DNA of 64,000 nt from Escherichia coli (GTDB lineage Bacteria > Pseudomonadota > Gammaproteobacteria > Enterobacterales > Enterobacteriaceae): assembly GCF_003019035.1 (NCBI RefSeq), contig NZ_CP027447.1, one strand, 5' to 3'. The notes beneath the pieces are model-generated. The model was not told where the DNA came from and searched no databases. It saw nothing but the letters and a program-made list of their open reading frames with translations. The translations under genes were made by a program, and so were the position numbers. This document shows, piece by piece, positions 11,646 to 52,851 of this stretch (the stretch's first letter is position 1; the number at the start of each line of letters is the position of its first letter).

Positions 11646-11679
11646 TGTGAGCCCGCCGTGGTGTTGCGCCACGGCGGGT

Positions 11680-24117: not shown

Positions 24118-24459
24118 TTATTCAACTTCAATACTTTTGACGATCAGCGAATCGCCGGTATCGACACGCAACCGCTCGCCATGACAGAGCGGACACTGCG
24201 CATCGTGCTGATGAATCTCCACCACCTGGCTGCAATCCCAGCACCAGGCCTGGGCGGGTTTATAGACGATATGTAAATCGCACCCTTGCGCCACCGTTCC
24301 GTGGCAGACAATTTCAAAACTAAAACGGACGGCGCTCTCCTCAACGCAGGAGAGCGCGCCAATTTCCAGCCACACGGCGGTGACGCGCTTAACATCGTGC
24401 TGCTCCGCCTGCCGTTGGATAATTTCAACGGCGCTCTGGCAAAGCGACAACTCATGCAT
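24118..24459 (-). CDS. hybF: hydrogenase nickel-incorporation protein (HypA family)
   Basis: Start set at MHELSLCQ (113 aa); CxxC zinc motifs. Confidence 0.9.
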   Translation of the reverse strand: MHELSLCQSAVEIIQRQAEQHDVKRVTAVWLEIGALSCVEESAVRFSFEIVCHGTVAQGCDLHIVYKPAQAWCWDCSQVVEIHQHDAQCPLCHGERLRVDTGDSLIVKSIEVE

Positions 24460-30878: not shown

Positions 30879-30996
30879 CGTTCACCTCATTCGCTATATA
30901 TTGTCATATATAGCGATATTTTAGGCAAAGAACGACTTTTGCGCACGCTATTTTTTCATGCTTGTTTAAGACGTAATCCCGTAAGAGATAAACCTA

Positions 30997-34694: not shown

Positions 34695-34731
34695 ATGCCC
34701 GGTTGTGAAAAGCAACCGGGCATCATTTTTA
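34695..34731. terminator. bidirectional rho-independent terminator between yghA and exbD
   Basis: atgcccggttg / caaccgggcat 11-bp stem flanked by A-run upstream and T-run downstream. Confidence 0.65.
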
Positions 34732-38143: not shown

Positions 38144-38175
38144 CGTTCCCGGTTGCTGCACCGGGAACGTATTTA
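38144..38175. terminator. stem-loop terminator between yghB and yqhC
   Basis: cgttcccggt / accgggaacg 10-bp perfect stem, 6-nt loop, followed by tatttaatt. Confidence 0.6.
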
Positions 38176-39129
38176 ATTCCCCTGCATCGCCCGCATTCTT
38201 GCCGCATCTTCCCCCGGCGTCACACCAAAGTAACGTTTAAACTCACGGCTAAATTGCGATGCGCTTTCGTAACCGACGCGCATCGCTGCCGCACTGGCTT
38301 TCATGCCGTCGTGGATGATCATCATCCGCGCCTTATGCAGACGGTAATTCTTCAAATACTGCAACGGCGAGGTGCTGGTGACAGACTTAAAATTATGGTG
38401 GAACGCCGATACGCTCATGTTGGCTTCTGCCGCCAGTTGCTCGACGCTCAGGTTTTCGGTGTATTTATTCTCAATCCGTTTCAGCACGCGGCTAATCAGG
38501 CTGAAGTGAGTCTGGCGACTGACCAGCGCCAGTAACGCGCCGCCGCAAGGTCCGGTCAGCACGTAGTACAGAATTTCGCGGATGATCTGTTTGCCGAGAA
38601 TACGCGCATCCAGTGGTCGCTCCATCACGTCGAGTAACCGCTCCGCCGCGCATAAAATCTCTTCTGATAACGTGGCAGAGTTAATCCCGCTGGCTGCCAT
38701 CGACGGCTGGAAATGCTCATCTTCGCCAATGTCCATCAACAGTTCCTGTAACTGCAAAATATCGACATTGAGACGCAACCCTGCCAGCGGCACCTCTGAC
38801 GTGGCATAGGTTTCGCACTCAAACGGCAACGGCACCGTCAGCAGCAGGTATTCATTGGCATCATAACGAAACACGCGTTCATTGATATAACCGATTTTAT
38901 GCCCGGAAAAGAGAATTATGATGCCAGGCTCGTACATCACCGGTGTGCGTGCGAAGGGCGTCTCGCCATACAACAAACGCACATCGGGCAACAGCTCTGA
39001 CAAACTATTTTCTTTATTTTTCAGTTTATTAACTTTATCCGCCAGCAAGCGGCAAATCTCTTCACGTTTCATATCGCGTAATTTCTTAGGAATAATGCGG
39101 CAATTTGATTGTGCGCAATTTTGTAGCAT
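38173..39129 (-). CDS. yqhC: AraC-family transcriptional activator of yqhD-dkgA
   Basis: 375-aa ORF trimmed to [10 protein letters not shown] start (318 aa); C-terminal AraC HTH. Confidence 0.85.
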
Positions 39130-39265
39130 TTCTCCAGCACTCTGGAGAAATAGGCAAGACATTGGCAGAAATGAGCATTGAGAGGTACGGCGCTGGCGAC
39201 CACAATGAAAAACATCAGGCAGACCGATCTCTGCCCTCATATTGGCCCAGCAAAGGGAGCAAGTA

Positions 39266-40429
39266 ATGAACAACTTTAATCTGCACACCCCAACCCGCAT
39301 TCTGTTTGGTAAAGGCGCTATCGCTGGTTTACGCGAGCAAATTCCTCATGGCGCCCGCGTATTGATTACCTACGGCGGCGGCAGCGTGAAAAAAACCGGC
39401 GTTCTCGATCAAGTTCTGGATGCCCTGAAAGGCATGGACGTGCTGGAATTTGGCGGTATTGAGCCAAACCCGGCTTATGAAACGCTGATGAACGCCGTGA
39501 AACTGGTTCGCGAACAGAAAGTGACCTTCCTGCTGGCGGTTGGCGGCGGTTCTGTACTGGACGGCACCAAATTTATCGCCGCAGCGGCTAACTATCCGGA
39601 AAATATCGATCCGTGGCACATTCTGCAAACGGGCGGCAAAGAGATTAAAAGCGCCATCCCGATGGGCTGTGTGCTGACGCTGCCAGCAACCGGTTCAGAA
39701 TCCAACGCAGGCGCGGTGATCTCCCGTAAAACCACAGGCGACAAGCAGGCATTCCATTCTGCCCATGTTCAACCCGTATTTGCCGTGCTCGATCCGGTTT
39801 ATACCTACACTCTGCCGCCGCGTCAGGTGGCTAACGGTGTAGTGGATGCCTTTGTGCACACCGTGGAACAGTATGTTACCAAACCGGTTGATGCCAAAAT
39901 TCAGGACCGTTTCGCAGAAGGCATTTTGTTGACGCTGATCGAAGATGGTCCGAAAGCCCTGAAAGAGCCAGAAAACTACGATGTGCGCGCCAACGTCATG
40001 TGGGCGGCGACGCAGGCGCTGAACGGTTTGATTGGCGCTGGCGTACCGCAGGACTGGGCAACGCATATGCTGGGCCACGAACTGACTGCGATGCACGGTC
40101 TGGATCACGCGCAAACACTGGCTATCGTCCTGCCTGCACTGTGGAATGAAAAACGCGATACCAAGCGCGCTAAGCTGCTGCAATATGCTGAACGCGTCTG
40201 GAACATCACTGAAGGTTCCGACGATGAGCGTATTGACGCCGCGATTGCCGCAACCCGCAATTTCTTTGAGCAATTAGGCGTGCCTACCCACCTCTCCGAC
40301 TACGGTCTGGACGGCAGCTCCATCCCGGCTTTGCTGAAAAAACTGGAAGAGCACGGCATGACCCAACTGGGCGAAAATCATGACATTACGCTGGATGTCA
40401 GCCGCCGTATATACGAAGCCGCCCGCTAA
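39266..40429 (+). CDS. yqhD: NADPH-dependent aldehyde reductase (iron-type alcohol dehydrogenase)
   Basis: Start set at [17 protein letters not shown] (387 aa). Confidence 0.95.
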
Positions 40430-40533
40430 GCTTTTTACGCCTCAAACTTTCGTTTTCGGGCATTTCGTCCAGACTTAAGTTCACAACACCTCACCGGAGC
40501 CTGCTCCGGTGAGTTCATATAAAGGAGGAACGT

Positions 40534-41361
40534 ATGGCTAATCCAACCGTTATTAAGCTACAGGATGGCAATGTCATGCCCCAGCTGGGACTGGGCGTCT
40601 GGCAAGCAAGTAATGAGGAAGTAATCACCGCCATTCAAAAAGCGTTAGACGTGGGTTATCGCTCGATTGATACCGCCGCGGCCTACAAGAACGAAGAAGG
40701 TGTCGGCAAAGCCCTGAAAAATGCCTCAGTCAACAGAGAAGAACTGTTCATCACCACGAAACTGTGGAACGACGACCACAAGCGCCCCCGCGAAGCCCTG
40801 CTCGACAGCCTGAAAAAACTCCAGCTTGATTATATCGACCTCTACTTAATGCACTGGCCCGTTCCCGCTATCGACCATTATGTCGAAGCATGGAAAGGCA
40901 TGATCGAATTGCAAAAAGAGGGATTAATCAAAAGCATCGGCGTGTGCAACTTCCAGATCCATCACCTGCAACGCCTGATTGATGAAACTGGCGTGACGCC
41001 TGTTATTAATCAGATCGAACTTCACCCGCTGATGCAACAACGCCAGCTACATGCCTGGAACGCGACACACAAAATCCAGACCGAATCCTGGAGCCCATTA
41101 GCGCAAGGAGGGAAAGGCGTTTTCGATCAGAAAGTCATTCGCGATCTGGCAGATAAATACGGCAAAACCCCGGCGCAGATTGTTATCCGCTGGCATCTGG
41201 ATAGCGGCCTGGTGGTGATCCCGAAATCGGTCACACCTTCACGTATTGCCGAAAACTTTGATGTCTGGGATTTCCGTCTCGACAAAGACGAACTCGGCGA
41301 AATTGCAAAACTCGATCAGGGCAAGCGTCTCGGTCCCGATCCTGACCAGTTTGGCGGCTAA
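40534..41361 (+). CDS. dkgA: 2,5-diketo-D-gluconate reductase A / methylglyoxal reductase
   Basis: 275-aa AKR-family ORF starting MANPTVIKLQDGNVMPQLGLG. Confidence 0.95.
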   Translation: MANPTVIKLQDGNVMPQLGLGVWQASNEEVITAIQKALDVGYRSIDTAAAYKNEEGVGKALKNASVNREELFITTKLWNDDHKRPREALLDSLKKLQLDYIDLYLMHWPVPAIDHYVEAWKGMIELQKEGLIKSIGVCNFQIHHLQRLIDETGVTPVINQIELHPLMQQRQLHAWNATHKIQTESWSPLAQGGKGVFDQKVIRDLADKYGKTPAQIVIRWHLDSGLVVIPKSVTPSRIAENFDVWDFRLDKDELGEIAKLDQGKRLGPDPDQFGG

Positions 41362-41560
41362 CGTGCAAATTCTCCCGGTGGCGGTAATGTTCCGCTACCG
41401 GACTTTTCAGAAATCATTTATTCCCCTCGCGTCCCGCCCGTTGCTACTCTTCCTTGTTCAGGAATGCCAAATATAAGGACATCATCATGCAGAGCCGGAA
41501 GCTCTTAAAGGAACAACTCATCTACACCCGGGATAAACGCAACGGAGAGGTGAAAAACAG

Positions 41561-46057: not shown

Positions 46058-46379
46058 CCTTCATTAGTCCAGAGCTGGCGTGAAAAATGACGCTGGCTCT
46101 GCGTTGCACCCTCCACTGGTATACGCTCTCTTCTCAATTGGTCTAATAAATCGATTATCATCAGATATCTTAGATTAGCGGCAATTATCCCAAAAACTGA
46201 CTTCTAAAAAACTTTCCTTTCATTTTATTCATATAACTCATTGATACAGATATAAATAACGCCTTGTTGTTCTGTTTCGTACTTTTACCTTTCTCTGCAA
46301 GCGTGATGCATCTCTCTGTTTTTGGTCTAGTGAATTATGTAAATTGGTATACACACAAGCCACCAGGAGTAAGAGCATA

Positions 46380-47852
46380 ATGTCAGGGAACGAAAGTATC
46401 GATGCCGCCCACTATGATCAGGTAACCACCTGGCCTCGGGGCGGGTTACAGGCAGATATTGTCCATATTGGTTTTGGCGCTTTTCATCGCGGACACCAGG
46501 CTGTCTACACGGATCTCACTAATCAACTTTCGGACACCCGCTGGGGGATCTTTGAGATCAACCTGTTTGGTGATGCTCAACTGATCGAAAACTTAAATGC
46601 GCAAAATGGGCTGTTTTCGGTTGTGGAAACATCTGCATCGCAATCTACCTCACGCCTTGTGCGTTCGGTGGCTGGCGGTATTCATACCCCCAGAGATGGC
46701 ATTGCCGCAGCAATCCATAAACTGGCTGAACCTCAGGTAAAAATCGTTTCATTAACCATCACCGAGAAAGGTTATTGCCTCGATCCGCAAACACGTTCAC
46801 TTGATCTCACCAATGGATTAATCCAACACGATCTACAAAACCCGGATGCGCCTCTGTCAGCTATTGGCGTGATCGTCTGTGCTTTGCAACAACGTAAAGC
46901 GACAGGACTCGCCGCTTTTAGTGTGCTCTCCTGTGACAACTTGCCAGACAATGGGCATCTGACGCGCAATGCCGTTCTCGGTTTTGCCCGACAACTGGAC
47001 CAGCCCCTGGCTCAGTGGATCGAAGAAAATGTCTCATTTCCAGGCACGATGGTAGATCGCATTGTTCCGGCAATGACTGAATCGCAATTCGCCTTACTGG
47101 AAACGAAAACCGGTTATGCCGATCCCTGCGGGATCGTCTGCGAATCATTTCGTCAGTGGGTGATCGAAGATAATTTTGTGCGCGGACGACCACAATGGGA
47201 TAAAGCCGGCGCGATGTTTGTCAGCAATGTTCAGCCTTATGAAGAGATGAAGTTACGCATGTTAAATGGTAGCCATTCATTTCTGGCTTATAACGGCTCG
47301 CTGGCAGGCTATGAGTTTATCTGGCAATGCATGGAAGACGCTAATTTTCGTTCCATTACCCACCAACTGATGATTAATGAACAAGCCCGAACACTTAATC
47401 CAGACTTAAATATCAACATCCAGGAATACGCCGACCTGTTAATTGAACGCTTTAGCAACCGTAACGTTGCACACCGTACCGGGCAAATAGCCATGGACGG
47501 TTCACAAAAGCTTCCCCAGCGTGCACTGACGCCCTGGCTGAAATTACATCAGCAAAAGCAAAACAATGCTGTTCTGTCACTGCTCGTTGCTGGTTGGTTG
47601 CATTATGTCATTGATGCTGTTGAGAAAAGCCAGTCTGTCGCTGATCCAATGAATGACCAATTTCAGGCGCTAATAAAGGAACAACAAGACGCATGGCAAC
47701 AGGCGCTCGCATTACTGCACCTTAGCGCCATATTTGGTGATTTAAGCAACCATCAGCCATTTATAAATGAAATAAAAATCGCCTTTGCGAATATAAAAAA
47801 CAAAGGCATCAAGGCCACCATCAGCCAATTATTATCGGATGAGCAGAAATGA
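46380..47852 (+). CDS. mannitol-dehydrogenase-family oxidoreductase (fructuronate/mannonate-reductase-like)
   Basis: Start moved from TTG at 46344 to ATG at 46380 preceded by aggag RBS (MSGNESIDAAHY); long-chain mannitol DH family features. Confidence 0.75.
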   Translation: MSGNESIDAAHYDQVTTWPRGGLQADIVHIGFGAFHRGHQAVYTDLTNQLSDTRWGIFEINLFGDAQLIENLNAQNGLFSVVETSASQSTSRLVRSVAGGIHTPRDGIAAAIHKLAEPQVKIVSLTITEKGYCLDPQTRSLDLTNGLIQHDLQNPDAPLSAIGVIVCALQQRKATGLAAFSVLSCDNLPDNGHLTRNAVLGFARQLDQPLAQWIEENVSFPGTMVDRIVPAMTESQFALLETKTGYADPCGIVCESFRQWVIEDNFVRGRPQWDKAGAMFVSNVQPYEEMKLRMLNGSHSFLAYNGSLAGYEFIWQCMEDANFRSITHQLMINEQARTLNPDLNINIQEYADLLIERFSNRNVAHRTGQIAMDGSQKLPQRALTPWLKLHQQKQNNAVLSLLVAGWLHYVIDAVEKSQSVADPMNDQFQALIKEQQDAWQQALALLHLSAIFGDLSNHQPFINEIKIAFANIKNKGIKATISQLLSDEQK

Positions 47853-52781: not shown

Positions 52782-52814
52782 TACACAATGAAGACTGCAT
52801 ACTGAGTAATTTTC

Positions 52815-52840
52815 AATGCCCCACCACTCTGTGGGGCATT
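52815..52840. terminator. stem-loop between convergent TRAP permease gene and ftsP
   Basis: aatgccccac / gtggggcatt 10-bp perfect stem with 6-nt loop. Confidence 0.5.
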
Positions 52841-52851
52841 GAATTGGTCCA

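Follow-up and report, generated by a model that had tools for sequence, protein, structure and literature searches.

The yqhD-dkgA spacer and its hairpin

The window, by which we mean the whole 64-kb stretch of Escherichia coli DNA that was analysed, carries on its plus strand the upstream cistron yqhD (39266-40429) and the downstream cistron dkgA (40534-41361), and the identity of both genes was confirmed. Their products are the NADPH-dependent aldehyde reductases that count most in tolerance of furfural, glyoxal and glutaraldehyde and in the engineered production of alcohols, and the two genes are usually treated as a single operon controlled by YqhC. Levels of dkgA rise alongside those of yqhD in YqhC gain-of-function strains or upon YqhC activation (PMC8262776). 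The 104-nt spacer between the two genes matches MG1655 3156519-3156622 exactly, and 5408 complete E. coli genomes share it at 99% identity or more. The translation start region of dkgA (40522-40536, plus strand) comprises a Shine-Dalgarno sequence, AAGGAGG, at 40522-40528 and an ATG at 40534.

Several features around the pair deserve mention in their own right. A perfect 10 bp palindrome, ATTTCTCCAG-CACT-CTGGAGAAAT (39128-39151), lies in the divergent yqhC/yqhD promoter region, where it probably serves YqhC as operator. In one E. coli database entry (P0113, 443 aa) a DUF3828 (YqhG-like) domain is attached to the aldo-keto reductase domain of DkgA, probably because a frameshift or an annotation error has fused dkgA with yqhG. 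A 502-aa plus-strand ORF (46344-47852) beyond the dkgA region is at odds with the gene order of MG1655, which has ygiQ, ftsP and plsC on the opposite strand at this place; the window carries a different segment there and so stems from an E. coli other than K-12.

Within the spacer, at 40490-40513 on the plus strand, is a palindrome that by sequence and predicted fold forms an RNA stem-loop of 10-11 bp with a loop of CCUG or CU. Its arms, CTCACCGGAGC (40490-40500) and GCTCCGGTGAG (40503-40513), are 100% complementary with CT between them according to a repeat finder (11+2+11); RNAfold opens the closing G-C pair, leaving a 10 bp stem with a 4 nt CCUG loop at -18.8 kcal/mol. Eight of these 10 pairs are G-C, and the fold has a z-score of -6.1 against dinucleotide shuffles. 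An earlier, sequence-only reading of this DNA had described a perfect 11 bp hairpin with a 2 nt loop and without a U-run, and both descriptions hold, given the arms returned by the repeat finder (10 bp and CCUG in RNAfold) and a tail 3' of the hairpin, UUCAUAUAAA, in which the longest U-run is 2. That reading had also placed the hairpin about 20 bp before the dkgA ribosome binding site, which needs correction: from the end of the hairpin it is 8 nt to the Shine-Dalgarno sequence and 20 nt to the ATG.

The window as a whole holds 8 distinct perfect hairpins with a stem of at least 10 bp, versus 0.5 expected from dinucleotide shuffles. Further hairpins of this kind occur at 38144-38169, 52812-52843, 34695-34723, 30891-30916, 24332-24357 and 11652-11678. 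One hairpin among these others lies between the convergent genes yghB and yqhC, the one at 52812 has a 13 bp stem, a T-run comes after the one at 34695, and that at 30891 is an AT-rich palindrome.

Conservation of the hairpin and of the sequence upstream of it

Orthologous spacers were taken from 80 Enterobacteriaceae loci found via DkgA and from 5 further genera reached by exact-protein look-ups. In all 85 genomes yqhD precedes dkgA, and all 64 distinct metagenome contexts contain both genes. The hairpin is found at the same place in 78 of 80 orthologous spacers, with a median stem of 11 bp, a median energy of -17.8 kcal/mol and 59 distinct 5' arms, and it is kept with differing sequences in approximately 85 Enterobacteriaceae species and in the 64 distinct metagenome contexts. 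Arm pairs include CATCGTCGGAGG/CCTCCGGCGATG in Enterobacter, CTTACCGGGAC/GTCCCGGTAAG in Phytobacter, TACCCCGCAG/TTGCGGGGTA in Atlantibacter and, in another orthologue, CCATCGGGGGT/GCCCCCGATGG; the loop varies from 2 to 12 nt.

RNAalifold applied to a plain MAFFT alignment of the spacers recovered the hairpin as the sole helix. On this sequence-only alignment both partners have changed in 8 of the 9 outer pairs, and pairing holds in 89% of cells. The covariation score of the hairpin, 0.229, compares with 0.03-0.08 for slid registers and was reached in 0 of 500 shuffles. Anchoring on the frequent CCGG core gave the pair types AT32/GC10, CG35/TA10 and GC23/AT18. Nearly all of the 75 distinct hairpin segments (96%) fold with z < -2, and the 64 distinct metagenome variants repeat the same covariation pattern, the hairpin being the only strongly covarying structure in the spacer. 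The hairpin is thus strongly supported as an RNA structure under selection, which compensatory mutations have preserved across enteric bacteria; chance is excluded because of the excess of perfect hairpins in the window together with the compensatory change in orthologues. Membership in a REP/BIME or ERIC repeat family was considered and ruled out, the hairpin occurring at a single site in each of 5412 E. coli genomes, and the ERIC-like elements present in some genera are separate insertions beside it.

A second conserved element lies just upstream, at 40447-40478 on the plus strand. This block is conserved in primary sequence, as CTTTCGTTTT-N6-TTTnGnCCAGACTTAA, with 10 columns invariant in 70 species. 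It is single-copy in E. coli, and its occurrences in metagenomes (104 stretches, 64 distinct) all lie between yqhD and dkgA; a search for the block apart from the yqhD/dkgA pair among the 85 genomes and 64 distinct metagenome contexts found no natural uncoupling. The hairpin starts 8-13 nt past the TTAA of the block in nearly all species. Hairpin and block are one conserved module, of which the hairpin is the 3' half.

The block forms the core of a match to the Rfam family RF02753, 'ES173 sRNA', which extends over 40432-40495 on the plus strand and scores 99 bits, the gathering score being 90. Neither this overlapping family nor the invariant block figured in the sequence-only reading. At its 5' end (40432) the match begins on an RNase E-type motif, GC↓UUU, just past the yqhD stop codon. 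Its 3' end lies 6 nt inside the 5' arm of the hairpin, those 6 nt being annotated as unpaired, so that the stem-loop itself is outside the model. The model instead has a weak upstream hairpin (40445-40481, plus strand; -9 kcal/mol, z -2.1) whose helix is mostly invariant sequence, with one-sided changes only and many unpaired cells. Zero double compensatory changes leave this helix unsupported as a selected structure and, because it is mostly invariant without such changes, the block is conserved as sequence rather than as structure. Inspection of both strands also led us to reject small ORFs in the block, since no start codon is conserved and the CAT at 40461-63 is variable.

Palindromic repeat insertions, ERIC-like elements or other inverted-repeat units, recur in the orthologous spacers before, after or inside the block, the spacers concerned also including loci L087, L136 and L153. 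An ERIC-like element lies between hairpin and ribosome binding site in L035, L037, L046 and L076, and inside the conserved block in L080. Other palindromic repeats lie between block and hairpin in L084 and L085, putting more than 60 nt between the block and a CCGG hairpin. The hairpin is replaced by another palindrome in L072 and L073, and in L061 it stands on either side of a 160 nt insert, as if duplicated upon insertion. A stem-loop is retained in all of these loci, even in the several lineages where ERIC-type insertions place the hairpin 97-146 nt from the Shine-Dalgarno sequence. These natural insertions show that neither neighbour of the hairpin is strictly needed at a fixed distance.

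Termination and other candidate roles

RNA polymerase reads through the hairpin, which is not a conserved intrinsic terminator. Its GC-rich stem-loop is of the terminator kind; a conserved U-tract is absent (the tail is UUCAUAUA), as are RNA 3' ends 7-9 nt after the stem among those listed by Term-seq. Among the entries listed in the Term-seq data of Adams 2021 (PMC7815308), none falls at MG1655 3156400-3156699 across the spacer, under conditions where yqhD was perhaps poorly expressed. The same data list a dkgA 3' end at MG1655 3157494 (window position 41405), which matches the 3' end of the operon at 41375-41408 on the plus strand, a 10 bp hairpin (41375-41401) followed by ACUUUUC. We used the d'Aubenton-Carafa discriminant comparatively only, as this mapped dkgA terminator is itself negative (-28.5, with 4 T in 8) and scores lower than the E. 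coli spacer hairpin (-6.8); over 76 orthologues the spacer hairpin has a median of -35.7, with 4 of 76 above zero. A consensus scan called no terminator at the spacer hairpin and missed the dkgA terminator as well. Because the scan misses that terminator, which also scores below the spacer hairpin, sequence rules alone are unreliable at this locus. Orthologue tails are mostly T-poor, with T counts mostly 1-3 of 8, and in many the proximal positions contain no T at all, as in AGCACCTG, ACACATGA and ATGGCAAA.

The sequence-only reading had judged the hairpin not to be a full terminator, and in this it is borne out by the co-induction of dkgA with yqhD (PMC8262776), by the Term-seq entries listed for the spacer and by the T-poor tails of orthologues. 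Of its two proposals, an mRNA-stabilising or processing structure would agree with the observations and is the most promising kind of explanation. The other, a partial terminator setting the yqhD:dkgA ratio, finds no support as a conserved function, most orthologue tails (such as AGCACCUG and ACACAUGA) being without proximal U; indeed termination cannot be the conserved function, because the orthologue tails score low and many are without proximal U. For E. coli itself, a weak or partial intrinsic terminator that reduces read-through into dkgA could point to a tail with UU at its start and 4 T in 8, and to a mapped dkgA terminator that is equally T-poor and scores worse. Against this stand the orthologue discriminants, the spacer without a 3' end among the Term-seq entries listed, the co-induction of dkgA, and a consensus scan that calls nothing at the hairpin, and we regard such a role as very improbable, although a small amount of termination may occur in E. 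coli. A role on the yqhD side, the main rival to the reading favoured below, fares better, while still being rather unlikely: the hairpin would be a 3' exonuclease barrier of the malE-malF type, at which PNPase and RNase II stall after a downstream endonucleolytic cut, so that yqhD mRNA and a 3'-UTR fragment (ES173) outlive dkgA and the yqhD:dkgA ratio rises. The stem downstream of yqhD is stable and GC-rich (-18.8 kcal/mol), the catalogued ES173 RNA spans the distance from the yqhD stop codon to the hairpin with its 5' end on an RNase E motif, the hairpin is kept whether insertions fall before or after it, as fits a position-tolerant barrier, and E. coli operons offer well-documented instances of the mechanism (PMC5927463). 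A barrier should nevertheless leave a 3'-end peak at the base of the stem, where none is listed (3156400-3156699) even though the dkgA 3' end is; the ES173 model stops inside the 5' arm and not 3' of the stem; and it gives no reason why the hairpin keeps so closely to 8-13 nt from the invariant block.

The hairpin might also leave decay unaffected and act as a translational insulator, sequestering GGAG/CUCC so that the dkgA Shine-Dalgarno sequence folds alike in long and short transcripts. The arms of E. coli and of many orthologues do carry GGAG (5') and CUCC (3'), and the Shine-Dalgarno sequence is unpaired once the hairpin forms. We consider this improbable, however, given that the hairpin is maintained 97-146 nt from the Shine-Dalgarno sequence in the lineages with ERIC-type insertions, and that long-range anti-Shine-Dalgarno pairing was no better than in shuffled controls. 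In the minimum free energy fold of E. coli, UACGCCUC (40437-40444), just past the yqhD stop, pairs with the dkgA Shine-Dalgarno region (40523-40532) and encloses both hairpins. As a conserved feature, such pairing or the translational coupling it could give was rejected: in 73 species the pairing probability of the Shine-Dalgarno sequence with the first 24 nt of the spacer was 0.50 versus 0.47 when shuffled, and 36 of the 73 lay above their control. Selection at the level of DNA, for an operator palindrome of a dimeric regulator, a cruciform or an insertion target, would be in keeping with a perfect palindrome that has a widely kept CCGG core and with a spacer that repeatedly gains palindromic repeats. 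Arm mismatches do not tell the strands apart, G.U and A.C being about equally frequent (42 vs 34); assignment of the strand by wobble pairs was therefore abandoned as uninformative, and the transcribed strand was inferred from context. Yet the arms change freely while pairing is kept, the 59 distinct arms including CCCCGC/GCGGGG without CCGG, and the loop ranges from 2 to 12 nt. A sequence-specific protein site is disfavoured because arm sequences vary in this way while pairing stays, and we give a DNA-level role hardly any credence.

A proposed dkgA-only mRNA and comparison with known systems

The reading that we favour, tentatively and with rather less than even confidence, is that the hairpin serves as a protective or insulating stem-loop close to the 5' end of a dkgA-only mRNA. 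Such an RNA would arise from an internal promoter in the block, starting at approximately 40482-83, or alternatively from an endonucleolytic cut in the CACAACAC stretch that leaves a 5' end at approximately 40487, and either way the hairpin would lie 3-7 nt from the 5' end. There it would hinder attack by RNase E, whether 5'-end-dependent or scanning, and by locking its own GGAG and CUCC arms it would keep the dkgA Shine-Dalgarno sequence, 8 nt downstream, open. The outcome would be that dkgA is expressed and stabilised independently of yqhD. What we infer in this reading is the promoter or 5' end, together with any influence on stability; demonstrated are the structure and its conservation, its tie to the block, the want of a conserved U-tract and, in the short-RNA fold, the open Shine-Dalgarno sequence.

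Published data sets offer several indirect observations. The single-stranded CACAACAC stretch (40482-40489, plus strand) directly 5' of the hairpin has ACA sites at 40483-85 and 40486-88, and a study of the MazF regulon reports cleavage of dkgA mRNA at an ACA lying 47 nt ahead of the start codon (PMC5001579, Table 1), a call made by inspection of coverage under mazF overexpression and not individually validated by primer extension. By computed distance this cut puts the 5' end at 40487, 3 nt ahead of the stem. RN↓WU motifs are found at 40474↓75 and 40479↓80. A region of rifampicin RNAP ChIP-chip signal, RNAP_1462 (3154447-3154797 in U00096.2; PMC3923258), corresponds to 40336-40686 in the window and is centred on the spacer; it is 350 bp wide, without a sigma-70 or sigma-S peak, and implies a promoter nearby. 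At entry of O157 Sakai into stationary phase, yqhE (dkgA) is listed as induced and yqhD is not (PMC2241611). In a fold of the RNA model 40483-40533, the hairpin follows a 7 nt leader and the Shine-Dalgarno sequence is fully unpaired.

A sigma-S-type -10 element has the consensus TCTATACTTAA, with -13C, -11A and -7T as its features. The TCCAGACTTAA sequence in the block can be read as a putative sigma-S-like extended -10, with C-13 at 40469, A-11 at 40471, T-7 at 40475 and TAA at 40476-78; across 70 species C40469, A40471 and T40475 never change, unlike the other positions of the hexamer. The proposed -10, CAGACT (40470-75), has both A-11 and T-7 and agrees with the consensus at 4 of 6 positions, with C at -12, and a conserved C/A dinucleotide follows 6-8 nt downstream of it. 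At a spacing of 16-18 bp there is no convincing -35 hexamer (CTTTCG or TTTCGT, 2 of 6), and a consensus scan of the spacer found no sigma-70-like promoter. Nor is dkgA among the entries listed in the Peano sigma-S ChIP-seq table, or a start or processing site in the spacer among those listed in the SMRT-Cappable-seq, Cappable-seq, Cho 2014 and Kim 2012 tables, which is weak evidence. The text of Dar & Sorek contains no information on the spacer, and a search of the searchable literature other than the primary yqhC/yqhD papers found no description of the spacer hairpin or of a dkgA promoter. A second exact copy of TCCAGACTTAA, at 47399, was dismissed as a chance occurrence inside the 502-aa ORF.

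Protection of 5' ends usually needs an unpaired leader of 2-4 nt, and the 6-7 nt here is longer. Nearness to the putative start is not obligatory, because the insertion in L084 and L085 separates block and hairpin by more than 60 nt. We counted the ES173 boundary, which falls at the stem, in favour of a 5' end just upstream, and the lack of a listed Term-seq 3' end at the hairpin in favour of a role on the 5' side. Although roles as 5'-side protection and as a 3' barrier are not mutually exclusive, the indirect evidence leans to 5'-side protection of dkgA over the yqhD side.

A broader reading, possible and more doubtful than the 5'-proximal role of the hairpin, is that block and hairpin constitute a dedicated and previously undescribed cis-regulatory module of the Enterobacteriaceae that uncouples dkgA from the control of YqhC and yqhD. 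Such a module could be a non-canonical internal promoter, sigma-S-like or activator-dependent, whose transcript begins with the hairpin. It could alternatively take the form of a regulatory RNA, an 'extended ES173', with the invariant single strand bound by a protein or sRNA and the hairpin as its anchor. The mechanisms of the hairpin are likely textbook ones; what is striking is its conservation, and the invariant block is unexplained.

Were dkgA to have its own start or stability, the modelling of the expression of both enzymes and the engineering of the locus would change, and deleting or keeping the spacer during over-expression of yqhD could differ in outcome. A conserved dkgA-specific start or stability element would, if true, also correct the boundary of Rfam ES173. 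Beyond the locus it would be a further example of a well-known principle, and its general impact would be modest.

Four known systems invite comparison. ES173, a candidate sRNA from E. coli RNA-seq, has the same locus and strand and its model includes the conserved block, but the model ends within the 5' arm of the hairpin, and the covarying structure is the hairpin rather than the model's own helix. Intrinsic terminators share the GC-rich 10 bp stem and short loop; the hairpin differs in having neither a conserved U-tract nor a listed 3' end, and in that the downstream gene is co-expressed. The stabilisers of the malE-malF/REP type are likewise GC-rich stem-loops without a U-tract that lie between co-transcribed cistrons and are read through, whereas the hairpin is single-copy, unrelated in sequence to REP/BIME, and without a 3' end listed at its base. 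In 5' stabilisers of the papBA/ompA type the downstream cistron gains protection when RNase E cuts, or a transcript starts, just before a hairpin (PMC5927463). The present case differs from these in that its 5' end is coverage-based, its leader would be 3-7 nt, and its hairpin is intergenic as opposed to inside the upstream ORF (PMC5927463). It resembles them in having a stable hairpin a few nt past a reported 5' end, an unstructured A/C/U stretch, a position before the downstream ribosome binding site, and conservation in related genera.
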